This document shows, in pieces, positions 5,173 through 45,497 of a stretch of 64,000 nt of DNA (position 1 is the stretch's first letter; each line of letters opens with the position of its first letter). The DNA comes from a virus. Below the pieces are notes generated by a model that ran no database searches, was not told where the DNA came from, and was given only the letters and a program-made list of their open reading frames with translations. Where the stretch lies: positions 2,249 through 66,248 of IMG/VR virus record IMGVR_UViG_3300025617_000001. One strand, 5' to 3'. A program made the translations under genes and the position numbers.

Positions 5173-5215
5173 GCGACAATAGCCTCTACTCTTATATCTT
5201 AAGGCTTAATGTCAC
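5173..5215. promoter_or_regulatory. Spaced palindromic site, copy A
   Basis: GCGACAATAGCC-N18-GGCTTAATGTCAC; related copies at 7169 and 14174. Confidence 0.7.
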
Positions 5216-5470
5216 ACATTACCCGAATTAGTATGGCTACGCTAAAAGCGAGCCTAGTGTCATCTTTTTTAGGGGTTAGATATTTAGGGGTTGGGTATTA
5301 TACCTATACTTTACAGTACACAACACGAAAGGGAAAACGCTTTAGAAAACCCCACGGGCCCCGTAACAGGGCGTAAGCCTAGAAATGTTTTGGCTTTTGC
5401 TGCAGACACTATACGGACCTCAACACTATACTATTTTGTACAGCGCGCCCCGCGCGTGTATAGCAAAGTG

Positions 5471-5637
5471 CAGACTCTCTACGAGTTGAGTTAGATAATA
5501 TATATGTACTGAGTTACTGACAGAGCCAAGAGCAAATGCAGACAGAGTACGAGTGGAGTTGGATAATATATTTGATTAAAAAATAAATAAATAAAAAAAT
5601 ATAATAACAGAATTAATACGAGTTATATCAGATAATA
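5471..5637 (+). promoter_or_regulatory. Three tandem early promoter-like motifs (5471-5500, 5539-5568, 5608-5637)
   Basis: Each matches CAGA-N5-TACGA-N9-GATAATA; upstream of the first early gene. Confidence 0.8.
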
Positions 5638-5679
5638 TAATAAATTAAAATAAATAATAACTAAATTAAATTAATTACT

Positions 5680-5901
5680 ATGCAAACAAAAAGATTCGTA
5701 ATTCGCAAATCACTAGTTGGAAAGAATGTTACAATTACATTCACAAATGCCAAAGGCCAAGTGTACAAGTACAATCATGATGAAGTGTACAATGCTAACA
5801 AGAAAAAGCTTGAAGCTATGAACTGCTTTCAAAAGTACAAAAGCTACACAGCTACAAACAATGTGCCTTCATTCGCTAAAGAGTTACTCATCACTGAGTA
5901 G
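5680..5901 (+). CDS. Early hypothetical protein, paralog 1
   Basis: 73 aa, clearly homologous to 6873-7091 (KRFVIRKSL.GKN..ITFTN...YNHDEV...YKSYTATNNVPSFAK). Confidence 0.85.
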   Translation: MQTKRFVIRKSLVGKNVTITFTNAKGQVYKYNHDEVYNANKKKLEAMNCFQKYKSYTATNNVPSFAKELLITE

Positions 5902-5920
5902 CTCTTAGCTAAACCAAAAG

Positions 5921-5950
5921 CAGATATACTACGATATGGTCTTGATAATA
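5921..5950 (+). promoter_or_regulatory. Early promoter-like motif
   Basis: CAGA tatac TACGA tatggtctt GATAATA, followed by tctttg. Confidence 0.8.
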
Positions 5951-5995
5951 TCTTTGATAACAATAATAACAATATTAATTACTAAATACTAAATT

Positions 5996-6277
5996 ATGTC
6001 ACAATTAATCAGTAACTGCTGCGGTGCAAGTCCGTGGCTCGGTAACGAACAGTTAGAACGTTGCGCTGAGTGCCTTGAGCACTGCGAGTTCGAAACCGAA
6101 GACAAAACGTTCTCTAAGAGATTCTTTCTGGGTTCACTAGCCTCTAAGTTGTTCATCTTACACAACGTACAACAAAGAGGCTTAGGATCAGCCAGACGTG
6201 AACTAATGGGTATGGATCTTCCTATCTCAGATGTTCAAGAGGTAAGTAGAATGTTAATACACATGTGCCATGAGTAA
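5996..6277 (+). CDS. Early hypothetical protein with Cys-rich Zn-binding N-terminus
   Basis: SNCCGA...RCAECLEHC. Confidence 0.75.
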   Translation: MSQLISNCCGASPWLGNEQLERCAECLEHCEFETEDKTFSKRFFLGSLASKLFILHNVQQRGLGSARRELMGMDLPISDVQEVSRMLIHMCHE

Positions 6278-6458
6278 ATTTGTAGATCAACCAGCTGAAA
6301 AGATAGCTGAACAGTTAGAGAGGGTTATTCAGTTCAAGAAGGATAATCCTCTGTTAGCTGACCTTGTAAAGATACGTGCATGGGAAAAATGGTGTACAAG
6401 CTATGAGTACCGTAAGAATGAATGGGAGTGGAGACAGAAGTACTTTGCAAACCGTTAA
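6270..6458 (+). CDS. Early hypothetical protein
   Basis: 62 aa, overlaps the upstream stop. Confidence 0.65.
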   Translation: MSKFVDQPAEKIAEQLERVIQFKKDNPLLADLVKIRAWEKWCTSYEYRKNEWEWRQKYFANR

Positions 6459-6485
6459 TAGCACCTCGCCAGAGGTGTATAGCAG

Positions 6486-6515
6486 CAGACACGGTACGGG
6501 AACAGTTTGATAATA
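6486..6515 (+). promoter_or_regulatory. Early promoter-like motif
   Basis: CAGA cacgg TACGG gaacagttt GATAATA. Confidence 0.75.
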
Positions 6516-6538
6516 TAACTGAATAAAAAATAAATATT

Positions 6539-6685
6539 ATGCCAAAAAAAATGTCACCATCGGAAATTAAAAACCACATCGAACGCCTTGAAGCTGTTGA
6601 GGCAAAATACCAACACCTGTACGATACCTTCGAGGATCACGACGACTGGGTATGGTTTATCGGTGAACGTATGGCAGAGGAATAA
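6539..6685 (+). CDS. Small early protein, 48 aa (not in ORF track)
   Basis: MPKKMSPSEIKNHIERLEAVEAKYQHLYDTFEDHDDWVWFIGERMAEE, directly after the motif and an A-rich leader. Confidence 0.7.
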   Translation: MPKKMSPSEIKNHIERLEAVEAKYQHLYDTFEDHDDWVWFIGERMAEE

Positions 6686-6805
6686 TCCCTGCCACCTAAC
6701 ATAGAGTAATTACTTGGCCTGGTTTTGAAATAGGATCGGAAGAGTAGACTCCGTCATACTCTATACTTAAGTGCTATACACGAGTGAAGTAAAGAATAAA
6801 AGTTG

Positions 6806-6835
6806 CAGACAGGATACGAGATCAGATCGATAATA
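6806..6835 (+). promoter_or_regulatory. Early promoter-like motif
   Basis: CAGA cagga TACGA gatcagatc GATAATA. Confidence 0.8.
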
Positions 6836-6872
6836 TAACTGTTCAATAATTAATAACTTAAATTTTATTACT

Positions 6873-7091
6873 ATGACTACAAAAAGATTCGTTATCAGAA
6901 AATCATTACTTGGAAAAAATGAAGTAATTACCTTCACTAACAAGAAAGGTGAAACCTTCAAGTACAACCACGACGAAGTATTCAAAGCGAACAAAGAAAA
7001 ACTCGAAGCGATGCCTTGCTTCCAGAAGTACAAATCTTACACTGCTACGAATAACGTACCATCCTTCGCTAAAGATCTACTACTGAAGTAA
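6873..7091 (+). CDS. Early hypothetical protein, paralog 2
   Basis: 72 aa, homologous to 5680-5901. Confidence 0.85.
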   Translation: MTTKRFVIRKSLLGKNEVITFTNKKGETFKYNHDEVFKANKEKLEAMPCFQKYKSYTATNNVPSFAKDLLLK

Positions 7092-7102
7092 GATCTTAAA
7101 AG

Positions 7103-7126
7103 TATGCGCTCCTTCGGGAGCGTGTA
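7103..7126 (+). terminator. Stable hairpin with cUUCGg loop (terminator or 3' stabiliser)
   Basis: TATGCGCTCC-TTCG-GGAGCGTGTA; no strong U-tract follows. Confidence 0.55.
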
Positions 7127-7168
7127 TAGCACTTCACTTCACCTTTACCAGAATCACCACGAAGCAGG

Positions 7169-7212
7169 GTGACAATTGCCTCGGAATATACTACTTATAA
7201 GGCTACTGTCAC
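7169..7212. promoter_or_regulatory. Spaced palindromic site, copy B
   Basis: GTGACAATTGCC-N20-GGCTACTGTCAC. Confidence 0.7.
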
Positions 7213-7305
7213 ACTTTTTCTTAAGACACACTCAGAAGCGTGGTTTTATACCTCTCCCTACTTTTTAAACTATAACTAAACTATCCACTTTATATTACAC
7301 TTTTG

Positions 7306-7335
7306 CAGATATAATACGATGCGAGTAAGATAATA
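7306..7335 (+). promoter_or_regulatory. Early promoter-like motif
   Basis: CAGA tataa TACGA tgcgagtaa GATAATA. Confidence 0.8.
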
Positions 7336-7371
7336 TAACTGTAATTAATAAATAACTTAAAATTTATAACT

Positions 7372-7560
7372 ATGACTATTAAATTTACTTCAAAAAGCAA
7401 ACGACCTTATTTAAAGTTCAACCATTCTAAGTACTATGGTTTTAAGATCAGTAAACTACCTAAAGCGTTCGCTGAAATAACCTCGGAAGAACCAATTAAC
7501 GAGTGGTTCAACTACGCTGGCTTTACTTTTATACACCAATCTTATATTAAAACAGTATAA
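7372..7560 (+). CDS. Early hypothetical protein
   Basis: 62 aa after motif; AACT-ATG start. Confidence 0.7.
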   Translation: MTIKFTSKSKRPYLKFNHSKYYGFKISKLPKAFAEITSEEPINEWFNYAGFTFIHQSYIKTV

Positions 7561-7562
7561 CT

Positions 7563-7703
7563 ATGATAAGTATATTACAAGTATTAGAACAAGGTGGTTT
7601 AGAGTACGACGGAGTATGGATCACTGATATTTACTACGACGAGACAGGTAGACACGAAGTAGATCCTCGCGAGTATTATAATATTAACTTTAAACTAGAT
7701 TAA
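7563..7703 (+). CDS. Small early protein, 46 aa (not in track)
   Basis: MISILQVLEQGGLEYDGVWITDIYYDETGRHEVDPREYYNINFKLD; TAACT-ATG coupling. Confidence 0.65.
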   Translation: MISILQVLEQGGLEYDGVWITDIYYDETGRHEVDPREYYNINFKLD

Positions 7704-7705
7704 CT

Positions 7706-7912
7706 ATGATCTTTGAACTTGAAATAGAATTTTACTTAACTGAAGAACAAAAGAAAGAGTATGGTATGGAAGACTTCATTATCTATGTAGAATCTAGCAC
7801 ACCTTACGTTACTCCTGAGCTCTTAGAGTCAGAGTATAATATGGCGACGGATTGCCACGATGCACTATTACAACCTTTCAAACTATTAACTTCTAGGTGG
7901 ATAAAACTATAA
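7706..7912 (+). CDS. Early acidic hypothetical protein
   Basis: 68 aa; TAACT-ATG. Confidence 0.7.
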   Translation: MIFELEIEFYLTEEQKKEYGMEDFIIYVESSTPYVTPELLESEYNMATDCHDALLQPFKLLTSRWIKL

Positions 7913-7917
7913 CTACA

Positions 7918-8049
7918 ATGGATAAGAATACTATTGAAAAATTAAAGCAATTATTTCCTTATAAATCAGAGTACGATCCAGACAAGTATATGGAAACAGT
8001 GATGGATTATATATACTCTGAAATAGTAGACGAACTAATTACAAATTAA
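7918..8049 (+). CDS. Small early protein, 43 aa (not in track)
   Basis: MDKNTIEKLKQLFPYKSEYDPDKYMETVMDYIYSEIVDELITN. Confidence 0.6.
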   Translation: MDKNTIEKLKQLFPYKSEYDPDKYMETVMDYIYSEIVDELITN

Positions 8050-8071
8050 ATACGATTGAAGTAAGATAATA
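8042..8071 (+). promoter_or_regulatory. Early promoter-like motif (variant)
   Basis: CAAA ttaaa TACGA ttgaagtaa GATAATA. Confidence 0.7.
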
Positions 8072-8092
8072 TAATAAACTAATATAATAATT

Positions 8093-8573
8093 ATGAAGAA
8101 TTTATTACTAAACTACGATCGCGAAGAAATATTCGACAAAGTTGTAGAAACTGAAATCTTTGATTACTACATGGATAAACTCCACATGGACGACTTCTGT
8201 ACACTTCAAAACGACATAGCGTACTTCATCAGTACATTAGAAACTAAAATAGTAAAAGAATAACTATGAGTTATACTAGAGAAGAACTAGAGAAGCGCGA
8301 CTTGTTGCTATACATCGACTTTCAACGTATCTGCGAAGAATTCGACTTAGACGAAGGTGGACTGGCGCCTGAGCAACACTTAGAACTAGAAAATATATTA
8401 ATAGAATTTATACTACAGAATAAATGGCAAAATCAAGACAAGTAACAGTAAAATTAACCTCATGGCAATCAGAAAAAGATTTAAACAAAGTATTAGAAGA
8501 AATATTCTGGGACTCGAAGTATTCTTACGAGTTCGACACTAACGAGTGGGAGATCGATGAAGTTGCAGATTAA
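8093..8573 (+). CDS. Three small acidic early ORFs (8093-8263, 8266-8445, 8424-8573; not in track)
   Basis: Tightly packed ORFs MKNLLLNYDREE..., MSYTREELEKRD..., MAKSRQVTVKLT... Confidence 0.6.
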
Positions 8574-8595
8574 ATACGACTGAAGTAAGATAATA
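8566..8595 (+). promoter_or_regulatory. Early promoter-like motif
   Basis: CAGA ttaaa TACGA ctgaagtaa GATAATA. Confidence 0.8.
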
Positions 8596-8619
8596 TTCAT
8601 GTAACAAAAATTAATAACT

Positions 8620-8871
8620 ATGCAAGATTACTTAACAACTCCAATTACCAATAACGAGCAAGCCAAAAAATATATCTGCGACTTGTACTTTGACGGCAAA
8701 CTGTACCATTTAGATGAGTCAGCAAGTATTATTATTAATATTAAAACAGGCGAAGACTTTTTTACGCCTGAAGAGTGCGAGCTTCTCGATAAAAGACGAG
8801 ACGAAGTATTCGAGCACATGGAAATAGATCCACATCAACTTTGTTGTGCTTTGCATGATATTAAACTTTAA
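8620..8871 (+). CDS. Early hypothetical protein
   Basis: 83 aa after motif. Confidence 0.75.
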   Translation: MQDYLTTPITNNEQAKKYICDLYFDGKLYHLDESASIIINIKTGEDFFTPEECELLDKRRDEVFEHMEIDPHQLCCALHDIKL

Positions 8872-8882
8872 AATTAAACGCT

Positions 8883-9032
8883 ATGTATTTAACAGAACAA
8901 GAATTAGCATTAGTATTCGAGAATATGAAGTTTGCACTCGAGCACTTGACCGATGACTTTACTGATCCAGTATTCACCGATCACTACAGAAAAGATATAG
9001 ATTTATTAAATAAAATAAGCAATACGTTATGA
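8883..9032 (+). CDS. Small early protein, 49 aa (not in track)
   Basis: MYLTEQELALVFENMKFALEHLTDDFTDPVF...; ATGA overlap with the next gene. Confidence 0.6.
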   Translation: MYLTEQELALVFENMKFALEHLTDDFTDPVFTDHYRKDIDLLNKISNTL

Positions 9033-9358
9033 CTACACTAATTAAACCACAGAAGAAAAACCACATTTACTACTTCAATGAAGACACAGTAAAAGATTAC
9101 ATGTACGAAACCCACACTGCGAAGTACGAGTTTGTTCGCTACAACTGCGACTGGGAAGACGACGAGTTACTGTTCAACGAGATACTCGAAGACTTTGACG
9201 ATCAGATACAAGAAGCAGAAATCGCCGAGTTTATAGAAATGAAATCTTGGGATCCAGAGTATTTAGCTATGGCACTACGTCGTGAGTGGCGTAAACAAAG
9301 TATATTACAATTAGAAATTAAAAAAATTAAAGAAGCAGTAAATAACGTTCGTTACTAA
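9029..9358 (+). CDS. Early acidic hypothetical protein
   Basis: 109 aa in packed + strand operon. Confidence 0.75.
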   Translation: MTTLIKPQKKNHIYYFNEDTVKDYMYETHTAKYEFVRYNCDWEDDELLFNEILEDFDDQIQEAEIAEFIEMKSWDPEYLAMALRREWRKQSILQLEIKKIKEAVNNVRY

Positions 9359-9359
9359 T

Positions 9360-9629
9360 ATGGGAGCAATATCAATACACGAAGTAGCAAGTAAAAAAGT
9401 ATACCGTAATGCAGTTGAAGCATACGAAGATTTAGTAGACAATGCAAGAGAGCAGTATGGCACGGATCCTTACTCAGGCACTATTGCCACAACACAGTTG
9501 CAAGGTAAAATTAGTGAGCCAGAAAACTACGAAGATTTCTACAATAAACTCGATGCTATACACAAGCGTGACTGCTGGTACTACGAAACTGACGAGCATT
9601 ATCACTTTATCGGGTGGGCTTCAAGCTAA
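9360..9629 (+). CDS. Early hypothetical protein
   Basis: 89 aa; YG.DPYSGTIAT...FIGWASS pattern resembles small phage proteins. Confidence 0.75.
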   Translation: MGAISIHEVASKKVYRNAVEAYEDLVDNAREQYGTDPYSGTIATTQLQGKISEPENYEDFYNKLDAIHKRDCWYYETDEHYHFIGWASS

Positions 9630-9632
9630 ATA

Positions 9633-9662
9633 CAGACTTAATACGACAACAGCGCGATAATA
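9633..9662 (+). promoter_or_regulatory. Early promoter-like motif
   Basis: CAGA cttaa TACGA caacagcgc GATAATA. Confidence 0.8.
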
Positions 9663-9690
9663 TAACTGTAACAAATTAAATTATATAGAT

Positions 9691-9945
9691 ATGGAAAAAT
9701 TACTACAAGAATTACGTTCAACAGGCGGCATCTTCAATGTACGCTTCTACAAAAAAGACGGTTCACGTCGCAGTATTAATGCACGCTTCGGTGTTCGCAA
9801 AGGTGTAAGCGGTGTAGGCCTTAAGTACGATCCAGCTTCACGTAACAACATCATAGTATACTCTATGGTTGACGGTGGCTTCAGAACTATCAACCTCGAT
9901 AGTATCTACAGAATCAAGTTTAACGGTCAAGAATATATACTGTAA
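9691..9945 (+). CDS. SH3-barrel/WYL_2 (DUF2693)-like protein
   Basis: V.FYKKDGS.R.I.AR...VYSMVDGGFRTINLDSI. Confidence 0.65.
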   Translation: MEKLLQELRSTGGIFNVRFYKKDGSRRSINARFGVRKGVSGVGLKYDPASRNNIIVYSMVDGGFRTINLDSIYRIKFNGQEYIL

Positions 9946-10229
9946 TGTCTAACACACCTACAAGTCACAAAGCCTTGCTGTGGCGTATCTCTCGTCACAT
10001 GCAAGACATGCGTGAAGTTTGGGACTATGATGGTTCTGAAGAATATACTGACGCAGAGATCGATATCCACAATGCAGCTATCAAGTTAGGTATTGTAGAT
10101 CAAGACTGGTACGATCGTCGCCTCAAGGCTACGTTTGATGAGTTATTATGTGAGCTTATCTATGTTACTGGTTTACATCACATGAAACAAAGAATAGACG
10201 AAATAATTATTAACCATGGAACCAGTTAG
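9945..10229 (+). CDS. Early hypothetical protein
   Basis: 94 aa; TAATG coupling. Confidence 0.7.
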   Translation: MSNTPTSHKALLWRISRHMQDMREVWDYDGSEEYTDAEIDIHNAAIKLGIVDQDWYDRRLKATFDELLCELIYVTGLHHMKQRIDEIIINHGTS

Positions 10230-10331
10230 ATCAGGTCAAGGTAGATCTAAAAATCAGATTGCCTGTAACGAAAAAGTAGCAGGCTATACAGCGGTTGGCT
10301 TTATAGCTTTATTAATATTAGCAATTGTATT

Positions 10332-10823
10332 ATGAATATATTTTACTTACATAGTAACCCTTTCAAAGCTGCTGAGTATCAGTATAACAAGCATGTAGTG
10401 AAAATGGTTTTAGAGTCAGCGCAAATGCTTTGTACTGCTCACCACCATTACGGCAACGGCGATAATGTTCCGTACCGAAAAGCTCATTACAACCACCCTT
10501 CAACAGTGTGGGCTAGACAAAGTACTCAGCACTATGATTGGTTACGCGATCACTTCATTGGTTTAGCTGACGAATATACCAAGCGATATGGTAAACGTCA
10601 TTTAGCTTTTGAAAAATGTATTGACTCTTTACTTAATCCACCTACTGGTATGCCTGACAATGGTTTTACTGAACCTCCACAGTGTATGCCTGACGAGTTC
10701 AAAGCGCCTAGTGCTATACACGCGTACTGGAATTACTATCTTACTGACAAACGTAGCGTTGTTAATTCTGATGAGAAAGCTTATGAGGCTATGCCTTCAG
10801 AACTTGCAGACAAAATACGATAG
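10332..10823 (+). CDS. Pyrimidine dimer DNA glycosylase (T4 endonuclease V/DenV-like family)
   Basis: MNIFYL...KHVVKMVLESAQML.TAH...YRKAHYNHPSTVWAR. Confidence 0.8.
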   Translation: MNIFYLHSNPFKAAEYQYNKHVVKMVLESAQMLCTAHHHYGNGDNVPYRKAHYNHPSTVWARQSTQHYDWLRDHFIGLADEYTKRYGKRHLAFEKCIDSLLNPPTGMPDNGFTEPPQCMPDEFKAPSAIHAYWNYYLTDKRSVVNSDEKAYEAMPSELADKIR

Positions 10824-10836
10824 CGGTTCGATAATA
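10807..10836 (+). promoter_or_regulatory. Early promoter-like motif
   Basis: CAGA caaaa TACGA tagcggttc GATAATA; overlaps the 3' end of the glycosylase gene. Confidence 0.8.
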
Positions 10837-10959
10837 TATCTGTAACAAATTAATTATTATGACTTTAAAATGTGAAATGTGCGGTCAACTTATGTCTCAA
10901 AGCGATTATGACTTCAGCGACATCTGTTCTGACTGTTTAGAAGAATTAAATTAACTATT

Positions 10960-11163
10960 ATGAGAGGACCAAACATGAGTTATTGCGCAGCAGAAAACAC
11001 AGAGCGCGCAATGCAGCAATTATTAGAGCTACTCGATGAAGGCGCAAAAGACGTTGACATCAGAGAACAGACTACTGAAGGTTATGCATTAGAGTCTGTT
11101 ATGGAATTATCCAGAGAATTACAAAGAATTATTCAAGACAAAATCGACGAAGCATGGGAGTAA
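10960..11163 (+). CDS. Early hypothetical protein
   Basis: 67 aa; NMSYC..ENT..AM.Q motif. Confidence 0.7.
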   Translation: MRGPNMSYCAAENTERAMQQLLELLDEGAKDVDIREQTTEGYALESVMELSRELQRIIQDKIDEAWE

Positions 11164-11381
11164 CATTAAACGATATGGAGCTTGAGGTATATCATATATG
11201 TGAAGCTCAAATAGAAAAATACATTAACGATTTTATAGAAACAACAGTTTGGGATATGATTTCTGACGAAGTTTGCGATTATCCTTTTAAAAACGAATCG
11301 GACATTCCACCTGGTTCAAGATCAGTTGATGCAGCAATAGAACGTATACATTATCATTTATCTAAAAAATTCAAACAATGA
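11154..11381 (+). CDS. Early hypothetical protein
   Basis: 75 aa in overlapping operon. Confidence 0.65.
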   Translation: MGVTLNDMELEVYHICEAQIEKYINDFIETTVWDMISDEVCDYPFKNESDIPPGSRSVDAAIERIHYHLSKKFKQ

Positions 11382-11653
11382 AAACAGTAAAATTACCTAA
11401 GTTTAAATTAGCAGGTGAGTTAACAATTTATGACAGCGGAGACACTGTACAAAATCCTTTTTCAGGCGAAACGTACGAGCTTACAGCCGAAGAGTTGTCA
11501 GTGTACGACTATATCATTGGTTTACAACACCTTATAAATCGCTCAGGTGGAGCTTTTTCACCAACAACTCGTAAATACCAACAAGACATGCGTATCGGTC
11601 TTGACTGGTTCAGAAAAAATAACGCGTCAGCATACATGGCATTATTAGATTAA
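11378..11653 (+). CDS. Early hypothetical protein
   Basis: 91 aa; NPFSGE...YDYIIG...LDWFRKNN..AYMALLD. Confidence 0.75.
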   Translation: MKTVKLPKFKLAGELTIYDSGDTVQNPFSGETYELTAEELSVYDYIIGLQHLINRSGGAFSPTTRKYQQDMRIGLDWFRKNNASAYMALLD

Positions 11654-11965
11654 TTATGAAAAAAGCATTACAATACTTATTTTACGCTTGGGTTGCTGTT
11701 ATGGTAACAATTATCAGTGTTTCATCTGCAGGCTTACTGTACGGTATATTTACCGGTCAAATACATTAGTCATGAGGCATTACGAAAACAAGCATATAGA
11801 TTATTTAGTAACACAAATCACACCAAAAGGTTTATGGGATTACTGTATCGCTAAAAAATGGTACGACGATTCAGAGTATATCAGAAAAAAATATTTAAAT
11901 TATGAGTAGAAAATTATATTTATTCGAGCAAGAACAACAAGTATTAAAAATTCAAAACAAGCGTA

Positions 11966-11995
11966 CAGACAAAATACGATCTGAGCGTGATAATA
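11966..11995 (+). promoter_or_regulatory. Early promoter-like motif (last copy seen)
   Basis: CAGA caaaa TACGA tctgagcgt GATAATA. Confidence 0.8.
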
Positions 11996-12017: not shown

Positions 12018-12371
12018 ATGGATTACAAAGCAAAAGTTTTAGAATATTACGGATCAGAACTAGAAACTGACTACGATTGTTGGGCAGATACTAAGTTTCA
12101 AATTAAGTATACGACAATCAGCACAGCTGATGACTACCAAATCTTTAACCGTAACGACGGTGGTTCTACAGTCTTTTATGATGAAGATCTGTTTTACTAC
12201 GCAGAAAACTGTCTTGACTGCATAGTTGATGACATCAAAGACGGTTTAACACTGTTCGTCGATGCAGATATCGCGCACGAGTGTGGTCTTGGTGATGATC
12301 AGGGTGAAAACTGGCATTGGCAAGAATTATACGAAGAGTTTTATGAAGAAGAAGATGATGATGAAGATTGA
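12018..12371 (+). CDS. Highly acidic early protein
   Basis: 117 aa, D/E/Y-rich, ends YEEFYEEEDDDED. Confidence 0.75.
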   Translation: MDYKAKVLEYYGSELETDYDCWADTKFQIKYTTISTADDYQIFNRNDGGSTVFYDEDLFYYAENCLDCIVDDIKDGLTLFVDADIAHECGLGDDQGENWHWQELYEEFYEEEDDDED

Positions 12372-12497: not shown

Positions 12498-12704
12498 ATG
12501 ACAACTAAAGAAAAAGCTAGAAATTATATCTGGTCTCGTATTCAGTCTACCGAAAGAGAATACACTCAGATACACGACGATATGAGACAACCTGGTGATA
12601 GACGCATAAGCATGGATAAGCTAGAGCTCATGCTTGATGCTACGGATCGTAAACTAGACATGTATAACTATTTATTTAAATTAGTAGAATTAGATGAAGG
12701 ATAA
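12498..12704 (+). CDS. Hypothetical protein
   Basis: 68 aa in operon. Confidence 0.65.
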   Translation: MTTKEKARNYIWSRIQSTEREYTQIHDDMRQPGDRRISMDKLELMLDATDRKLDMYNYLFKLVELDEG

Positions 12705-13155
12705 ATTAAACGAAGACAAACACAAAGCATTATACGTAATCAAACATGAAACAGAAAAAATCACTGGCATCGAAGATATTAGTTGTAAGTCCCGCGCACG
12801 GGAATATGTCTTTGCAAGATTCTTATACATCAAAGCAGCAAGAGAATTTACCGACTACGCAATGTCAGCAATAGGCGGCGGTATTGATAGAGATCATGCT
12901 ACAGTTATGCACTCGCTTGTAAACTTACAGTGGGACTTTGACCATAATAAAGATTTACAGACTAAATACGATGAGCTTGCGATAATATTAACGAACAAAT
13001 TAAATATCAATGCTATCAGTAAGCTTGATGAGCAAATCGATAAGCTTTTAGATCAGTTACATACATTACGTAAACGCAGACAAATACTTATAAATTATGA
13101 ATCTTCTGACACAAAACTCGAAAATAAAGAAAACGTCCAAGTTTTTTGGAGTTAA
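12694..13155 (+). CDS. DnaA domain IV-like (Bac_DnaA_C) DNA-binding protein with C-terminal coiled coil
   Basis: KSRAREYVFARFLY...SAIGGGIDRDHATVMHS matches the DnaA C-terminal R.R..AR / IG....RDHxTV.H signature. Confidence 0.8.
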   Translation: MKDKLNEDKHKALYVIKHETEKITGIEDISCKSRAREYVFARFLYIKAAREFTDYAMSAIGGGIDRDHATVMHSLVNLQWDFDHNKDLQTKYDELAIILTNKLNINAISKLDEQIDKLLDQLHTLRKRRQILINYESSDTKLENKENVQVFWS

Positions 13156-13699
13156 AGTTTTTAATTGGACATTACCAGCTTACAAATCTAAATCAGGTAA
13201 AATGATTTGCCCTATGGCAGGCGATTGTAAAGACTTCTGTTATGCACGTAAAGGCGCATACATCTGGTCTAACGTAAACAAAGCGCACGAAGAACGTTAT
13301 GAGTTCAGTAAAACAGATCTATTTGTACCTGTTATGATTGCTGAGATCAAACGTAAAAAAGCTGATTATATTCGTGTACATGACTCTGGCGACTATTACA
13401 GTCCGATGTATTTAGCTAAGTGGTTTGAAATAGCTCGAGCATTACCTGATGTACGTTTTTATAGCTACACCAATATGATCGACTTAGTGCAAAACGTAAA
13501 CGTACCAGACAACTATGATTTTATATATTCAGACTCAGGTAAGCAATCACATCTGATTGATCCTCGCGTCCATAGACACACAAAGATATTTTCGTTAGGT
13601 TCAGATATGGGTAATTACGTAAACGCGTCAGAATATGATTTATATGCAACAAAATGGTTTAGCCCAGAAAATCATCGCATTGGCTTAATGTTTCATTAA
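13097..13699 (+). CDS. GP88-family, radical-SAM-like phage protein
   Basis: NSK.KK; CPMAGDCKDFCYA; IRVHDSGDYYS; FYSYT. Confidence 0.7.
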   Translation: MNLLTQNSKIKKTSKFFGVKVFNWTLPAYKSKSGKMICPMAGDCKDFCYARKGAYIWSNVNKAHEERYEFSKTDLFVPVMIAEIKRKKADYIRVHDSGDYYSPMYLAKWFEIARALPDVRFYSYTNMIDLVQNVNVPDNYDFIYSDSGKQSHLIDPRVHRHTKIFSLGSDMGNYVNASEYDLYATKWFSPENHRIGLMFH

Positions 13700-14173: not shown

Positions 14174-14218
14174 GTGACAATAGGCTATAAGATTATAAGA
14201 GATAGGGGCTAATGTCAC
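14174..14218. promoter_or_regulatory. Spaced palindromic site, copy C, overlapping start codon of the HTH gene
   Basis: GTGACAATAGGC-N21-GGCTAATGTCAC; ATG 14212 lies in the right arm. Confidence 0.7.
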
Positions 14219-14832
14219 ACAATATGGATTACTTACATGACAATAAGATTATATACAAGCGTTTGCCTGTTTCAGATCTTCCGTCTGCTACGTATCATTG
14301 GGGTTGGCACTATGAAAACGGCACACATGAATACTACGCGTTGTTTCATTCTAAAAGCCAAATAACGTCTTATAAGTCATTAAAATGGCATTTGTATGTA
14401 TTATTACATCTAAATCCAGAAATGTCCAGAGAACGTTTTATTGAACTTACTGATTATATAACTAATAAAGATAATGGGTTTATTTCCTTTACTATCAATC
14501 GCGATGATCTTAGCGATATTATTGAGAAAGTATTAATGTACAATGTTGATCAACCACCGAACAACAGAATACGTAAAGTAATATTTAAAGACGGTACAGG
14601 TTTGTCTGTATCTGATAAACTAAAAATAACAGGTCAACTCATCGGAAGAAATAAAAACGCTTCTGAAAGTGATATATATGAAATAATGTTGTATCTTCAT
14701 GACCAAGGTGAAAAGATTACAGTTAAAAAAATATCTGAAGCCTTAAAAGTTACAACACGTACAATATATAGAAACATAACCGATGAGTTAAAAAAAGAAA
14801 AAGACCTACTTAATGAAGAATTACAATCTTGA
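14212..14832 (+). CDS. DNA-binding protein with C-terminal HTH (regulator or replication initiator)
   Basis: ITVKKISEALKVTTRTIYRN helix-turn-helix. Confidence 0.7.
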   Translation: MSHNMDYLHDNKIIYKRLPVSDLPSATYHWGWHYENGTHEYYALFHSKSQITSYKSLKWHLYVLLHLNPEMSRERFIELTDYITNKDNGFISFTINRDDLSDIIEKVLMYNVDQPPNNRIRKVIFKDGTGLSVSDKLKITGQLIGRNKNASESDIYEIMLYLHDQGEKITVKKISEALKVTTRTIYRNITDELKKEKDLLNEELQS

Positions 14833-15987: not shown

Positions 15988-16719
15988 ATGAAACAAGCCG
16001 AAGTGCTTGACCGTCTGAAAAATGACGAGGACTACTATGGTAAATTTGGAAAGCAGTATCTATCAAACTCTGATATTGGTACTCTTTTCAAAAACCCCAT
16101 GGATCTAGGTAAGCCAACCGAAAAAACAGTTCCGATGCTTATCGGCGGTTACTTACACACGTGTATACTTGAGCCTGAAAAGCTACATACATTCAAAATT
16201 ATACCTGCAACAACTCGTAATACTAAACAGTATAAAGAGATATCAGAAGGTGAGCTTTGTTTGTTACAGCATGAGGTTGATCGTATAGAATTATTAAGAG
16301 ATACAATACTTGATAATGATATATGTAGAGATCTTATAAAAGCTGATGGCAATGAGTATGAAAAACCAGCGATCACAGAGTTATTCGGTAATCAATGGAA
16401 AGGTAAAGCTGATATTATAAACCATAATGAAAAGCTTATCATTGATATTAAGACGACTTCAGATATTGACGGTTTTAAATGGAGTGCTAAAAAATATAAC
16501 TACGACAGTCAAGCTTATATTTACAGGCATTTATTTGGGTATGAATTTATTTTCATAGCGATCGATAAAACTTCATATAAAATTAATATATTTGAATGTT
16601 CGGATAATTTTTATCTGACTGGTGAAGACAAAGTAGAAAAAGCAAGTCACATTTATGACCTGTTCTACAAAACAGATGGGTTCGACCCGAAACAATATTT
16701 AGAAACCAATACATTATAG
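15988..16719 (+). CDS. PD-(D/E)XK exonuclease (RecE/exonuclease VIII-like)
   Basis: YLSNSDI; G..LHT.ILEP; KGKADI...IIDIKTT; YNYDSQAYIY. Confidence 0.85.
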   Translation: MKQAEVLDRLKNDEDYYGKFGKQYLSNSDIGTLFKNPMDLGKPTEKTVPMLIGGYLHTCILEPEKLHTFKIIPATTRNTKQYKEISEGELCLLQHEVDRIELLRDTILDNDICRDLIKADGNEYEKPAITELFGNQWKGKADIINHNEKLIIDIKTTSDIDGFKWSAKKYNYDSQAYIYRHLFGYEFIFIAIDKTSYKINIFECSDNFYLTGEDKVEKASHIYDLFYKTDGFDPKQYLETNTL

Positions 16720-16721
16720 AT

Positions 16722-17030
16722 ATGGCGATTATTTTAAAAACAAGTATTAATCTGTCTGAAATACCAAAAGACAAGATTATTGACGGTAAAAAAGGAAAGT
16801 ATTTACCGATCACAATTACTATCAACAACGAGCCAGACCAGTTTGGAAACAACGGTCCAGTAATTGTTGAACAGTCTATGGAAGAGCGTCAAGCCAAAGC
16901 ACAAAAGACTTACTTAGGTAATGTTAAAGTAGTTTGGACTGATGGCCAACCAGCAACGGTAGCACCACGTGAAGGTCAACCTCAACAACAACAATCAAAC
17001 GTAGTAGCAAACGACGATTTACCATTTTAA
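16722..17030 (+). CDS. ssb: Single-stranded DNA-binding protein
   Basis: OB-like core, Gln-rich linker, DDLPF C-terminus. Confidence 0.75.
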   Translation: MAIILKTSINLSEIPKDKIIDGKKGKYLPITITINNEPDQFGNNGPVIVEQSMEERQAKAQKTYLGNVKVVWTDGQPATVAPREGQPQQQQSNVVANDDLPF

Positions 17031-17040
17031 TTAAATAGAC

Positions 17041-18756
17041 ATGCACGTTAACGACGTAGAGATCAATGGCTTCTTAATTGACGAGTTCAACCAACACGGA
17101 CTAGAGGTTGGCAAAACGCAAGGTATCTGCCCCTTGTGTAGTCATGAAAGAAAACCCGAAAATAAAAAGAGCAAATGCGCTAGTTATGATTGGGAACGGG
17201 GTCTCGGGACATGTCACAACTGTCATCAAACATTTCAGCTACATACTTATCATAGGAATGGCTCTACTGAAAAAGAGTACGTAATTCCAGATGTAGAACC
17301 TGTTTTAATCCAAAACCCTAAAGTAGTGGCTTGGTTTGATAGCAGAGGTATTTCAGCTCAAACCCTCAAAGATATTGGTATCGGCGAGGGTTTAGAGTTT
17401 ATGCCCCAGACCGGTAAACAAGAAAATACTATTCAGTTTAATTACTATATCGGAGGTAACTTAGTTAATATTAAGTATCGAGACGGTAGAAAAAACTTTA
17501 AGCTTTATAAAGGCGCTGAAAAAGTATTTTACAATATTGACGCAACGGTTGGTTACGACACTATTGTTATAGTTGAAGGTGAGATGGACGTGTTATCGTT
17601 CCATGAAGCCGGAATTAAAAACGTTATCAGTGTACCCAACGGTGCAACTTTAAACAATAACAACTTAGATTATCTTGATAACTGTATTGATTATTTTTCT
17701 GATAAAGAAAGAGTTATCATTGCAGTTGATAATGACGAGGCTGGTCAAGCATTACAACAAGAGTTAGTTAGACGCCTTGGCGCAGAACTATGCTATACAC
17801 TCAGTTTCGACGACGTCAAAGATGCTAACGATTATTTACAAAAGTATGGAAAACAAAAACTGGCGCAGCATATTGCCCAAGCAAAACCAGTCCCTCTCGA
17901 AAACGTATCAACATATAAGGACATCGAACATGAAGTCCTTGATTTTGTCCATAACGGTTTTAAACCAGGCTTTCAAGTCGGTCTTAAAAACTTTGATGAT
18001 ATATTTTCTACTTACACTGGTCAATTTATTACTGTTACTGGTATTCCTAGTTCCGGTAAGAGTGATTTTGTCGATCAAATGGTTGTCGGCTATAACAAGA
18101 ATTATGGGTGGAAAACAGCGTATGCTTCTCCAGAAAATGCACCAACTTACTTACACGCACACAAACTTATTAGAAAAGTGTGGGAAGGTATGCCAACAAA
18201 GGCTGATGTAGGTACAGACAAATGGAATACAGTGACTCAGCATGTTAATGACAACTTCTTTTTCATTGATATGGATCGTTACTCTCTTGAGTCTGTCTTA
18301 CGCAAAGGTGCTGAGCTTGTAAAACGTAAAGGTATAAAGTGTTTAGTTATTGACCCTTTTAATAAAGTAAGAGATGTTGATGCTAAAACTGAAGACGTTA
18401 ACCGTTATACAATGGAGTATTTAACTAAGATCGAAAGCTTTTGTAAGAAGTATGATGTATTAGTTATTATTGTAGCACATCCTACTAAAATGTATAAAAA
18501 CAGTGATGGTCAAATTGAAGAACCAACAATGTATAATATTAAAGGCGGTGGCGAATGGTACGATGCATCATATCATGGTATTCTGGTACATAGAAATTAT
18601 GAGGAGAAAACGGTTAAGGCAAAAATACTTAAGGTTAAATTCCAAAACTTAGGTGAAAACGGTGCTGAAGCTCATTTCAAATGGGAACCAAAGTCAGGTT
18701 GTTTTATACCTCATGAACGAATAGAAATTAATAACGAACCAATGCCTTGGGAATAA
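17041..18756 (+). CDS. Primase-helicase (T7 gp4/Twinkle-like)
   Basis: Zn finger CPLC...CHNC; TOPRIM VEGEMD, DNDEAG, KDANDYL; Walker A GIPSSGKS; Walker B LVIDP; VAHPTK. Confidence 0.93.
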   Translation: MHVNDVEINGFLIDEFNQHGLEVGKTQGICPLCSHERKPENKKSKCASYDWERGLGTCHNCHQTFQLHTYHRNGSTEKEYVIPDVEPVLIQNPKVVAWFDSRGISAQTLKDIGIGEGLEFMPQTGKQENTIQFNYYIGGNLVNIKYRDGRKNFKLYKGAEKVFYNIDATVGYDTIVIVEGEMDVLSFHEAGIKNVISVPNGATLNNNNLDYLDNCIDYFSDKERVIIAVDNDEAGQALQQELVRRLGAELCYTLSFDDVKDANDYLQKYGKQKLAQHIAQAKPVPLENVSTYKDIEHEVLDFVHNGFKPGFQVGLKNFDDIFSTYTGQFITVTGIPSSGKSDFVDQMVVGYNKNYGWKTAYASPENAPTYLHAHKLIRKVWEGMPTKADVGTDKWNTVTQHVNDNFFFIDMDRYSLESVLRKGAELVKRKGIKCLVIDPFNKVRDVDAKTEDVNRYTMEYLTKIESFCKKYDVLVIIVAHPTKMYKNSDGQIEEPTMYNIKGGGEWYDASYHGILVHRNYEEKTVKAKILKVKFQNLGENGAEAHFKWEPKSGCFIPHERIEINNEPMPWE

Positions 18757-19041: not shown

Positions 19042-19666
19042 TAATGCCACTGAGGCGTTCGAGTATTGGTTAGAAATTATTAGGCATTCAGGTGTTGAGT
19101 TTCAGAACACCAAAGCATTATTTAACATTGGCTTTTGGCTTGAAAACCCGCTAGACAACATTGTAATACATCGCGAAAGACCTTGGAACCACAAATACGC
19201 TGAAGCTGAATGGGAGTGGTATATGTCAGGTGACAATAGGCTTTCTACTCTTGGTGATATCTATGGTAAAATACCTCAGATATGGCAGAAAATGGGTAAC
19301 AAATACGGACGCGTAAACTCTAACTATGGTTGGCAATGGAACCGTAATAACCAATTAGATTATGTTATTGATCTACTAGAGCGTGATCCGAGCACTAGAC
19401 AAGCTGCAATTAGTATTTACGATGGTAAAGAAAACTTAGATTATGCTTACGACACGCCTTGCACTTATGCAGTTCAGTTTTACATAACCAACAACAAGCT
19501 AAACATGTCTGTTATGATGCGTTCTAATGATCTCTGGTACGGTTTTGCGATCGATCAGTATTGTTTTTCAAGACTACAACAGATGGTTGCCCAGAGACTG
19601 TCTATTGACGTCGGCCAATATTACCACTTTGCAAATAATTTACACGTTTATGATGACAGACTCTGA
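19007..19666 (+). CDS. Thymidylate synthase-family enzyme, probably dCMP hydroxymethylase/methylase
   Basis: Catalytic PCT; RSNDLWYGFAID with Asp at the E. coli ThyA Asn177 position; NLHVY; likely start ATG 19007. Confidence 0.75.
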   Translation: MQTNIDLRTSFSNATEAFEYWLEIIRHSGVEFQNTKALFNIGFWLENPLDNIVIHRERPWNHKYAEAEWEWYMSGDNRLSTLGDIYGKIPQIWQKMGNKYGRVNSNYGWQWNRNNQLDYVIDLLERDPSTRQAAISIYDGKENLDYAYDTPCTYAVQFYITNNKLNMSVMMRSNDLWYGFAIDQYCFSRLQQMVAQRLSIDVGQYYHFANNLHVYDDRL

Positions 19667-30450: not shown

Positions 30451-33400
30451 TTACTTGTTTTTCATGTACTTTTTGTACTCGTCTAGAGACATGTTATTCA
30501 AATTACTTGTTTTTTTAGATTTTTTAACTTTCTTTTTATCTCTTGACTCAACACCCACGTTCCAAGTATTCCAACCTAGCACTAAAGCTATTTTAGCCCA
30601 AGTCTCCGTTTCAGCATCTGAAGCCGCTTTTAAATTTCTAACTTTAGTAAGCGCTCTATCAAGAGGTACGTTTAATGTAAATGCTGAAGCTGATCCAACA
30701 ATATCTAAAGCAGGATTATCAATAGTAACACCCATTTCAGCCATGCGATCTTTGTTGTATCTGTAGTTTTGGATAGAACTGTACATTTGTCTACCTTTAA
30801 TACCGATAGCAGGAGATATGTTCATGGCTTCAATTAATGTGTAAGCGTGATCCGCGCGTCCCCTACCTTCTTCTTGTTTAGCTTCTTGTTCAGCAAACTT
30901 GAGTATAACGTTTTTAGCGGTAGCAAGAACTCCACCGTAAAGACCGGTACCTCTAACAACTGTATCAACTACGTTATTAATCAGTCTTAGTTTTTTCTTT
31001 TCGTTATCTTCTTTGTTTTCTTCTTCATCATCTTCGAACAACATGCCAAACATTGCTTGCTGCATGGCTGAGAATACGATGTTCTGAACTACCATATAAT
31101 AAGCTATCTTGCTAATATTTGTTTTCATATCACCGCGTCCAGCAGCTAAGTCTTTTGCAGCCTTAACTATAATTCTAGTGTACTGCATTGGTGTATTCTG
31201 GAAGGCAAGGAATACACGACCAATAACATCTGTTTGTTGTTTAGCAAGACGATCAGGTCTAGCAGACTGTTGACTTTCTTCAGATATTTCTTGAAAGTCT
31301 AAGAAAGCTTGTTGTTCTGCTGCTTGTTGATTCATGCCTTGAGACAGATATGTATTTATTCTGTTTCTAAGGAATGGCGCGCCACCTGTTGCAATAGCAA
31401 AACTATCACCGATCTGTGTAAAACTAAAACCAAGTTGCAGTAATCTGGCGTGCATACCTTTTACACCACCTTTTTTAAGAGCTTCTGCTAAATCAGCAGC
31501 GTTAACGTCTGTTTTAAGACCTCCACGTCTTTCTTTTAAATAATCAGAGTTGAATATAAACGCCCAATCTTGAGTATACTGTTTTATATTAGCTACCGCA
31601 GCCGCGGCTTTAATAGGATTATTGTCGCTCCAATTTATAAAGTTAACTAGAGATATTTGCTGTAGTATTGCGGATCTAGTATTAAAGAACATAGTTACAG
31701 CCACAGACCCTCTGATCCAGTTTAAAAACTGATTCATTTGCTTGTTAGTACCTTCAGGTCTTGCCGTGCCGTTTTCCATTCGGTAATGCATATCTTCAAG
31801 AGCTGATCTAAAATCAGGACCGTAAGTGGCCTCAATTTTATTCATATTATTTTCTGAAAAGATCGTGTTTTTATTGTCGATCCACTCTTGTAGCATAGCT
31901 TTTCGAGAAACTTTCTCTACAGCTTTCACCATGTCAGACTTTATAGAATCTATCTGCCAGTTTTTAGCATCAGGCTCCACCCAAAATTCCTCAATACCTA
32001 ATATGCTTGATAATTCTTTACCATAAGCTTCTATATCAGGATTATTTTTTACAATTTTAACTAGCGCCGACTGAGTATCTTCATTTAAACCGGAAGGGTT
32101 AAATCCAGCTTTACCAAAAAGCCAAACTCTTAAAGCTTGCTCAAATGTAAAACCACCAAAACCTGTATCTTGTTTTAGTTTTTTAACAACATCAGGGTTA
32201 GCTTTATTTATCGCTTTATATCTTTTAGTTACAAGTTGTCTTTTTGCATTTAGTGCTTGATAAGCTTTAGCAAAAGGTTTTATAAGCTTATTTTCAAAAA
32301 ACTTATATTGCTCTTCTCCTAGTTTTCCTTTGTCTAAAAATCTATAAATTAAACCTACATAATCGTCTGCAGATGGAGCTAATATATCTCTTCTTTTAGC
32401 TCTAGTAGCAGCTAAGTTTTTAGCTGTAGCCCTGTCAAGTATTTGACCGGCAGTATATCTTTTATCTACATTAGCAAGTATAGCTGACATTCTAGACTCG
32501 TCGTTAGAAATAGTCTCGTTGTTTTCTATACTATATAGCTTATTAATTTTATCTACTTTTACAGCAAAGTCACTAGTCTTTGTTGTTTTGTCAGCTTGTC
32601 TAGCTACCCTTAAAGGTATAATTTGAGCTCTAGACTGTACTTGTTCTAATCTTTGGTCAGAAAGTATAGACGCTGCTCTTTTCACGTTTGTTTGTAATGT
32701 AGGATCTAAGTGCTCTAGTCTGTATTTTTTTCTTCTTCCAGATAAAGTTTTAGTACCATCAACTACAGAATCGTCAACTATTTCTGCTAACGCTTTTAAA
32801 CCTGTGTTTATATTAGAATCAAAAGCTGCTAACTGTAAAGCGAAAACTATACGATCAGTTAACTCTTCTTTTGTTTCAGCAGCATTAATAAAATCGTGTA
32901 TGTAAGATTCAGTAATACCAAACAATCCTCTTCTTACAGCGTTGTTTTTTCTATAGCTTTCTAATATCTTTAATCTTTCTGTTTCAGTCTTAGCTTTGTT
33001 TATCTTTCTTGTCATGTCAGAAAGAGGAACGTTATTTATTTGCTTTTTACCATGTTTTTCAATAAAAGCATTAACAAGTTCTTGTGTTCTTTCAGAAATA
33101 TTAGTGTTCGTAGATATATTTCTATTTATTTCACCTGCTTTTTTAATTATGTTTTCTAACTCTTTTTTATCAATTAAAATATTTCCTTCTTCGTCAATTA
33201 TACTTTTAACGTTATCAGGATCAATTAAAGTTTCTAGTTTTATACCATAAGCGTTGGTCCTGTAGCTATATCCCGATAAAGATTTAGTCAAACTACTGTA
33301 TACTTTAAAAATTGCAGGAAGACCATTTAAGAACTTAAACTGCATTTTTTCTAGCTCTTTTATTTTTTCAGCTTCAAATTTCTGAACACCTTTTCCAGTA

Positions 33401-45419: not shown

Positions 45420-45447
45420 AATAAAATAATATATAAGAGTAGAAAAA

Positions 45448-45489
45448 GTAAGAATTTACCCCCGTCGATAAGACGAGGGCAAAACTTAC
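45448..45489 (-). terminator. Terminator hairpin after the major capsid gene
   Basis: Minus strand GTAAGTTTTGCCCTCGTC-ttatc-GACGGGGGTAAATTCTTAC followed by TTTTT. Confidence 0.7.
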
Positions 45490-45497
45490 ATTAGTTA

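Follow-up and report, generated by a model that had tools for sequence, protein, structure and literature searches.

The stretch of DNA analyzed here, referred to as the window, comprises 64,000 nucleotides (bases 2249-66248 of the 66,248-bp IMG/VR virus record IMGVR_UViG_3300025617_000001) and carries, at the beginning of the rightward arm of an uncultured marine podophage related to Flavobacteriia phages, a series of short tripartite sites of the form CAGA-N5-TACGA-N9-GATAATA. When this pattern was searched on both strands with up to two mismatches, 13 matches were found in the window, all on the plus strand and all between 5471 and 12987 (Table 1), against an expectation of 0.09 (100 shuffles, largest value 1). 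Eleven copies are exact and the remaining two have one mismatch each, at 6486 (TACGG) and 8042 (CAAA). The whole 66,248-bp record yielded 13 forward matches, no reverse match and no match to the control pattern. The twelve starts given by the initial annotation were all found to be correct, and so were its observations of a single strand, fixed spacing and free spacers; its statement that there were none beyond 12 kb was off by one, as a thirteenth site begins at 12958. A 42-column weight matrix built from the 13 sites gave them scores of 34.5 to 52.4 bits, and no other position on either strand of the genome exceeded 8 bits (best of 20 shuffles, 6.9). The degenerate copy that had been proposed at 5403 was not recovered by this matrix, although a generic sigma-70 scan does read a promoter-like pair there (Table 1). 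The same generic scan assigned 9 out of 12 to six of the 13 sites, read as CAGACA-N17-GATAAT.

In this genome the extended consensus of the sites is A..tG-CAGAc..aa-TACGA-....aGt..-GATAATAT-a..tG, and TA-N4-TG follows the pattern directly in nine of the 13, the number originally noted. An ORF (open reading frame) with an ATG start begins 22 to 46 nt after ten of the sites. The first two tandem copies (5471 and 5539) and the site at 12958 are the exceptions to the earlier description of each copy as standing upstream of an ORF. The ORFs at 5680-5901 and 6873-7091, each behind its own site, are paralogues with 74% identity over 221 nt (5668-5888 compared with 6861-7081), and the 153-amino-acid (aa) product of ORF 12694-13155 has a DnaA C-terminal helix-turn-helix (PF08299, E = 4.6e-10) and was present only in this genome among the 14 compared. 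No other repeat family within the window looked regulatory. The leftward arm was scanned for the same -35/-10 pair and gave matches of 15 to 18 bits only inside genes, with shuffles reaching 14.2; nothing convincing was seen there.

Table 1. Positions in the window of the tripartite sites, the Element-2 copies and the two overlapping regulatory genes.
Feature	Position	Strand	Context	Score or support
Element-2, GCGACA...AATGTCAC	5173..5215	+	start of rightward arm; tripartite site 1 follows after about 300 nt	
Degenerate copy, CAGA-N5-TACGG-N9-CTATACT	5403..5432	+		below 8 bits in matrix; generic scan CAGACA-N18-TATACT
Tripartite site 1	5471..5500	+	first of three tandem copies 68-69 bp apart, no ORF between	47.2 bits
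Tripartite site 2	5539..5568	+	tandem; followed by exact TATATTTG	50.9 bits
Tripartite site 3	5608..5637	+	tandem; 43 nt before ORF 5680-5901	34.5 bits
Tripartite site 4	5921..5950	+	46 nt before ORF 5996-6277	pattern and matrix
Tripartite site 5, TACGG variant	6486..6515	+	24 nt before ORF 6539-6685	pattern and matrix
Tripartite site 6	6806..6835	+	38 nt before ORF 6873-7091	pattern and matrix
Tripartite site 7	7306..7335	+	37 nt before ORF 7372-7560	pattern and matrix
Tripartite site 8, CAAA variant	8042..8071	+	22 nt before ORF 8093-8263	pattern and matrix
Tripartite site 9	8566..8595	+	25 nt before ORF 8620-8871	pattern and matrix
Tripartite site 10	9633..9662	+	29 nt before ORF 9691-9945	pattern and matrix
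Tripartite site 11	10807..10836	+	overlaps end of ORF 10332-10823; 23 nt before ORF 10859	52.4 bits, best score
Tripartite site 12	11966..11995	+	23 nt before ORF 12018-12371	pattern and matrix
Tripartite site 13	12958..12987	+	inside ORF 12694-13155; 110 nt before GP88-family ORF 13097-13699	pattern and matrix
Element-2, GTGACA...CTAATGTCAC	14174..14218	+	ends on start codon of the helix-turn-helix gene	candidate promoter/operator of the operon
Helix-turn-helix protein, 206 aa	14212..14832	+	C-terminal helix-turn-helix; 20-nt overlap with sigma gene	conserved across clade
Sigma-70-family protein, 248 aa	14813..15559	+	regions 2 and 4; candidate site reader	profile and structure-sequence alignments

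The sites are a property of a whole clade. An exact scan of IMG/VR gave at least 129 stretches with the motif, and each of 20 contigs searched in full had between 2 and 13 copies (up to two mismatches) clustered on one strand, with a single opposite-strand match and none to the control. A family set of 131 sites was collected from 14 genomes; in this set CA at offsets 0-1, ACG at 10-12 and GATAATA at 23-29 are invariant by construction, being part of the collecting pattern. Among the columns that were not imposed, T was found at offset -2 in 121 of the 131 sites and at offset 34 in 105, and A predominated at offsets -1 (112), 3 (111), 7 (121), 8 (117) and 13 (116). Offset 35, seven nucleotides after GATAAT, was a purine in every one of the 131 (100 G, 31 A). 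An ORF start lies 10 to 60 nt downstream of 73% of the family sites, as against 17% of random positions. Outside phages, the 17-base pattern gave 48 scattered matches in 596 Gb of bacterial and archaeal genomes (185,579 species), about what chance would give by our own estimate, and five of the 48 came from short contigs of one Bacteroidetes metagenome-assembled genome. As far as genome sequences can tell, the motif is not a bacterial promoter class. A 14-base scan of IMG/VR for the TATAAT variant described below was discarded as unspecific, since nearly all its matches were single and in unrelated contigs. Our literature search found no description of the motif, of the sigma or of the clade.

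Downstream of the sites, a helix-turn-helix (HTH) gene and a sigma gene overlap (Table 1). The sigma assignment is based on a match to phrog_351 (E = 1.7e-11), on an alignment of its region 4 to SigB of 7pp4 and on relatives named 'sigma-70 family' in their sources; scores against TIGR02937 (39.6 bits, cut-off 42.9) and PF04545 (20, cut-off 24.1) fall below the cut-offs, the former narrowly. Neither the sigma nor the HTH protein had a match in 50,697 GenBank phage records, and a profile of the HTH protein matched neither the sigma nor any solved structure. Among the 13 other genomes the HTH gene was found in 10 and the sigma gene in 9, the rest being fragments or ending before the gene, and five cultured relatives were without motif, sigma and HTH gene. 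A search of IMG/VR anchored on the sigma retrieved at least 476 contigs with the gene. Of the sites that a variant-tolerant pattern counted in the best 80 of these loci, 385 lay upstream of the sigma gene on its own strand, compared with 9 downstream of it and a single one on the other strand; the reversed-pattern control gave 2. Where at least 4 kb of sequence was available upstream of the gene, 59 of 63 loci had two or more sites. Five of the 80 loci (L220, L231, L246, L251 and L253) also have a tripartite site within the last part of the HTH gene, 35 nt from the sigma start codon. Only 8 nt separate GATAATA from the sigma ATG in L246 (9963-10003), a spacing that suggests a leaderless sigma mRNA.

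A second repeated sequence, Element-2, is an imperfect palindrome of about 45 nt, G(T/C)GAC(A/G)...AGGCTAATGTCAC, present in 2 to 4 copies per genome. The HTH start codon closes an Element-2 copy in 75 of 85 loci; besides this copy and the one heading the arm there are a few elsewhere, and two genomes (G007 and G017) have a further copy, pointing leftward, at the divergent junction. One reading of the element is GTGACA-N16-TAATAT/TATAcT, with transcription starting on the ATG or close to it. Element-2 is the obvious candidate for the promoter or operator of the sigma operon, possibly one that gives a leaderless mRNA. An RNA hairpin was also considered for Element-2 and rejected, as no RNA covariation was detected. 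The initial annotation had objected that a sigma gene at 14813, downstream of the sites, could not easily start them. The position is as described, yet the objection is weakened because the HTH-sigma operon is preceded by this conserved element. The segment 5207-5462, which separates the upstream Element-2 copy from tripartite site 1, has a 55-aa ORF that is not conserved in relatives, together with some G+C-rich stems and a hairpin (GCGCG-CCCC-GCGCG). A non-coding RNA may be encoded here, but the fold is weak (z = -1.58).

By position, geometry and conservation, the tripartite sites are almost certainly promoters of a phage-private class, and from gene position we infer that they are early ones. 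They reproduce the sigma-70 layout of a -35 element, a 17-bp spacer, a -10 element and a purine as CAGAC(a)-N17-GATAAT, and the relatives L184-L189 have TATAAT at the same place. A conserved inverted pair flanks each site, TACA at offsets -2 to 1 and TGTA at 34 to 37, with 32 nt from ACA to TGT; in two Element-2 copies (genomes G012 and G000) the same distance, counted by eye, was 32 to 33 nt. This pair, the similar frame of Element-2 and a 16-bp palindrome found at equivalent places in the sigma-less relative MW202828.1 would also suit other roles: the sites might serve as replication iterons, act at the RNA level as signals within a long early transcript, or be operators bound by a shut-off repressor. 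Such roles are highly improbable. The spacing is fixed and the spacers are free; folding of all 13 sites gave no stable hairpin (z from -0.69 to +1.05), and Rfam gave no match, the E values all being 0.03 or higher and the scores far from any gathering threshold. Moreover, the -10-like hexamer stands at the right distance from the purine, and the sites are distributed over 7.5 kb, one per ORF, rather than in a tight cluster.

The terminase of this phage is 65% identical to that of the uncultured podophage MW202828.1, 47% to those of the Flavobacterium elemo-group phages and 32 to 38% to those of Cellulophaga, Tenacibaculum and Maribacter phages. Only 5 of 84 ORFs have a Shine-Dalgarno word upstream, a number at the background level that fits a habit described for Bacteroidota (PMC6847099). 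Shine-Dalgarno words at background together with terminase relatives that infect Flavobacteriia suggest that the host is a Bacteroidota, which we regard as likely. Sixteen sequencing runs contained at least one fifth of the sampled words of the region, 15 of them marine or seawater metagenomes and one a soil metagenome.

We compared the sites with the promoter code of the Bacteroidota primary sigma, TTG or TTTG at -33 and TAnnTTTG at -7. Both promoter types are bipartite with a long fixed distance and occur upstream of genes of phages with Flavobacteriia-infecting relatives, but the sites have CAGAC and GATAAT or TATAAT where the host code has TTTG and TAnnTTTG. TAnnTTTG occupies the -7 position in 3 of the 131 family sites, so the two exact copies noted earlier at 5539 and 5921, both of which are present, look like chance, and the proposal of a host -7 element beside the boxes is not borne out. 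The word is not enriched in the genome (46 on the plus and 38 on the minus strand, 45.6 expected per strand). Nor was TTTG or TTG found 19 to 21 bp upstream of the -7 box, as the sites read A-c-w-n-a-a at offsets 3-8; the one full match to TTTG/TTG plus TAnnTTTG on the plus strand of the genome lies away from them. The original proposal of a phage-specific promoter class requiring a phage factor is thus partly supported. The class is phage-specific, different from the Bacteroidota sigma-A type, clade-wide and located before the small ORFs of the rightward arm.

The sequences that stand before the early genes are markedly different from one relative to another. The cultured phage elemoA (NC_055852.1), which has no sigma, shows no repeated early element, and its early arm is headed by two tandem promoters of the canonical Bacteroidota type, TTG-N19-TATATTTG, on the minus strand (19317-19346 and 19545-19574), each preceded by the same 18-nt word. 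MW202828.1 (L138), also without a sigma, has 11 copies of a perfect 16-bp palindrome, GTGTCGTTAACGACAC, between 43745 and 49889, about 30 nt before early ORFs, with none in the remaining 43 kb of its sequence examined; its late genes show TATCTTTG, which contains TAnnTTTG, after terminators. Phage transcription in Bacteroidota is, to our knowledge, known from very few systems. In one of them, phage phi14:2, the middle promoters P070 and P075 read TTG-N19-TAnnTTTG and are transcribed by the host polymerase (bioRxiv 10.1101/2020.03.07.982082).

The host holoenzyme alone, with its primary or another sigma, might still read the tripartite sites, the phage sigma then being made first by read-through and acting later on Element-2 or on late promoters. 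Three tandem copies (5471, 5539 and 5608) followed by one site per small ORF form a classic early layout, and the sigma gene follows them on that strand. In 5 of 80 loci a site comes just before its start, as would befit a later-acting sigma. The known phage sigmas phiEco32 gp36, SPO1 gp28 and T4 gp55 read middle or late promoters and not the first ones. We nevertheless find this explanation rather unlikely, because the sites do not follow the TTTG/TAnnTTTG code that Flavobacteriia phages use, the -35-like CAGAC is not a consensus for a primary sigma, and 30 bp with a fixed third box exceed what a sigma needs. The motif, at chance level in the prokaryote genomes, was seen only together with the phage sigma.

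We favor the explanation, to which we give a probability of roughly 45%, that it is host core RNA polymerase with the 248-aa phage sigma that reads the promoters. Under this explanation CAGAC(a), at offsets 0-5, would be the -35 element and GATAAT, at offsets 23-28 and exactly 17 bp downstream, the -10 element. Transcription would start at the conserved purine at offset 35, seven nucleotides past GATAAT, leaving leaders of about 15 to 30 nt before the small ORFs. The middle box AATACGA, in the spacer at about -28 to -22, would provide an extra contact, made by the sigma itself or by a second factor. The sigma would be produced first from the HTH-sigma operon under its own promoter-like Element-2, which also heads the arm. 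Since synthesis of the sigma has to precede their use, these promoters would belong to a delayed-early rather than an immediate-early class.

Natural variants of the sites bear on this assignment. The loci L184-L189, whose sigma is 65 to 68% identical to that of this phage, have TATAATA in place of GATAATA and AACAA or TACAA in place of TACGA; L191 has the -10 box GATATTA, L256 the middle box TATTA, and L215 and L190 the middle box TACAA. The CAGA/CAAA box and all spacings are constant across these loci. Residue S99 of the sigma is K in 6 of 6 loci with TATAAT and in none of 62 with GATAAT. It belongs to a helix, KGFVSKRIKG, that aligns weakly (2.9 bits) with region 2.3/2.4 of solved sigmas, and S99K is the kind of change that would be expected if the sigma reads the first base of the -10 element.

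T4 middle promoters combine a MotA box with a sigma-70 -10 element, and lambda cII and PhoB-type activators act at class II promoters. All of these resemble the tripartite sites in having a good -10 without a consensus -35 and a box or direct repeats at a fixed distance, between -35 and -22; in T4 the MotA box is 11 to 13 bp from the -10, whereas here the distance is 9 bp. A phage activator, made early or delivered, could bind the repeats TACA(G/A)A and TAC(G/A)A, 11 bp apart over the -35 region, and recruit the host polymerase to the -10. The upstream boxes do repeat each other in the same direction one helical turn apart, and in L188 and L215, among other loci, the repeat is perfect (TACA...TACA). 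The middle box varies by sub-clade at fixed spacing as it would for a co-evolving binding protein, and the HTH protein, a candidate activator, is conserved together with the sites. Yet the HTH protein has the same recognition helix in all 43 sequences compared, also in sub-clades whose middle boxes differ, and its gene is downstream of the sites. The -10 element would remain outside the host sigma-A code, the first repeat fits the -35 position equally, and no activator candidate was identified among the early ORFs, no search being aimed at relatives of MotA, AsiA or cII. We hold dependence on an activator to be unlikely.

Another possible reader is a virion component, such as a packaged sigma or some other protein, that enters the cell along with the DNA and reads the sites at time zero. 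The genome encodes a giant protein of 2112 aa (30451-36789, minus strand), Gly/Ala-rich at about residues 150-400 and with a HELLH zinc-peptidase-like motif near residue 570, of which the last 650 or so residues alone are well conserved in relatives (40 to 50%). A neighboring tail gene has a crassvirus muzzle domain; the phage is not crAss-like in the strict sense. The giant protein shows no DFDxD, D-x-D-x-D or T7-like motif and no match in Pfam, NCBIfam or PDB sequences. In the GenBank phage records used above, neither this protein nor the nucleotide sequence of the early region had a match. Its look-alikes in a protein atlas are hypothetical proteins, with weak leads to the polyvalent-protein domains LPD38/39. 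A six-frame search of the genome for D[FYW]DxD hit only the inside of the ribonucleotide reductase small subunit. With no polymerase motif or family match in these sequence-level searches, no virion RNA polymerase is seen, and the 3859-aa giant protein of MW202828.1 is likewise without polymerase motifs.

Early promoters of virion RNA polymerases are exemplified by N4, with its hairpin promoters (PMC4496689), and by the crAss-like phi14:2, with gp66. Both resemble this phage in having a clade-specific signal before early genes in a podophage with a giant virion protein, but the tripartite sites form no hairpin and the present genome has no DFDxD two-barrel or T7-like polymerase motif. A hairpin promoter of the N4 type was ruled out by the folding of the 13 sites, and a crAss-type polymerase by the sequence-level motif and family searches. 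For phi14:2, early transcripts are reported to have no common motif upstream of them (bioRxiv 10.1101/2020.03.07.982082). A delivered reader would agree with the lack of any conserved host-type promoter found in the rightward arm, and the 2112-aa protein, with its LPD38/39 leads, is of the kind that is ejected with the DNA. The initial annotation had suggested an injected sigma; the sole sigma gene, however, overlaps the HTH gene in the early/replication arm, outside the virion module, and the genome shows no RNA polymerase motif. The giant protein has neither a two-barrel or T7-like motif nor a family match, and we know of no precedent for a packaged sigma, so that a delivered factor appears very unlikely. 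A broader variant, distinctly unlikely as well, is that the clade runs its whole programme on a code orthogonal to that of the host. If the host TAnnTTTG code is never used, the reader or its first dose would have to be present at time zero, as a packaged sigma-like factor or as a host polymerase reprogrammed by an ejected protein, with TACGA read by a further partner.

Several points weigh against the phage sigma as the reader. The chief weakness is the gene order, combined with the failure to find anything that the host sigma-A should recognize so as to start the cascade: the sigma gene is downstream of all 13 sites, Element-2 is also outside the Bacteroidota host code, and no conserved host-type promoter was found that would express the sigma first (19 of 76 loci have TAnnTTTG in the 300 nt that precede the HTH gene, compared with 13% of random windows). 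In well-known phages small ORFs of this sort are read by the host holoenzyme. Neither the replication genes (14-24 kb) nor the structural arm, the usual targets of known phage sigmas, have a tripartite site in front of them. The covariation at S99 represents a single evolutionary event and one of seven discriminating columns, placed by the weak alignment mentioned above, and the changes of the middle box (TACGA, CACGA, TACAA, AACAA and TATTA) are matched by no residue of either the sigma or the HTH protein. The co-occurrence of sites and sigma is that of one clade against outgroups. Finally, a host primary sigma that reads TATAAT-like elements would void the argument from mismatch with the host code.

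Phage sigmas with private promoters are represented by SPO1 gp28 and T4 gp55. Another is gp36 of phiEco32 and 7-11 (PMC8948821, PMC12276001). In these systems, as proposed here, the host core is redirected to a promoter of highly conserved sequence, unused by the host sigma, and in phiEco32 a second phage protein is reported to assist the sigma (PMC12276001), which recalls the HTH gene overlapping the sigma gene in this clade. The systems differ in that the known sigmas act before replication and structural genes whereas the tripartite sites occur only before small ORFs at the start of the arm, in the third fixed box of these sites and in the absence of a match for this sigma among the 50,697 phage records. 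In a survey that covered about 3,500 phage genomes, sigmas of any kind were reported for only two phages of Bacteroidetes (bioRxiv 10.1101/2021.11.12.468384).

Some further observations concern the record and other parts of the genome. One metatranscriptome run contains 80% of the sampled words of the region. Over this region the RNA runs consist of contigs only, with flat depth like that of the DNA run; breaks at the repeated sites are an assembly effect and are uninformative on starts or expression. Summed contig depth was raised at 16674-18007, a stretch running from the last part of ORF 16722-17030 into the primase-helicase gene, in all three RNA-library runs (50.6, 7.85 and 3.82) and not in the DNA run; conserved genes of other phages may account for this. 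What the record gives as a 'direct terminal repeat' consists of 46 nt that overlap exactly (window 63955-64000, genome 1-46) inside a repeated tail-fibre-like coding sequence, and the record therefore does not fix the true ends or the direction of DNA entry. At 45420-45497 of the window, and at the homologous place in 10 other genomes, a terminator hairpin after the major capsid gene is followed by a conserved TTATATTATAT(T/C)ATG that runs into the next start codon, without TAnnTTTG; it is a possible late promoter giving a leaderless mRNA.

If the phage sigma does read the tripartite sites, the question raised is what transcribes the first gene. The roughly 400 natural promoter variants offer material for dissecting sigma specificity, and orthogonal expression parts for Flavobacteriia could follow. 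With at least 476 IMG/VR contigs encoding sigma relatives and the same sites recurring in related phages by the hundred, a self-contained pair of sigma and promoter that ignores the host code would then be at work in a common marine phage group, and this would explain the separation of phage from host transcription.

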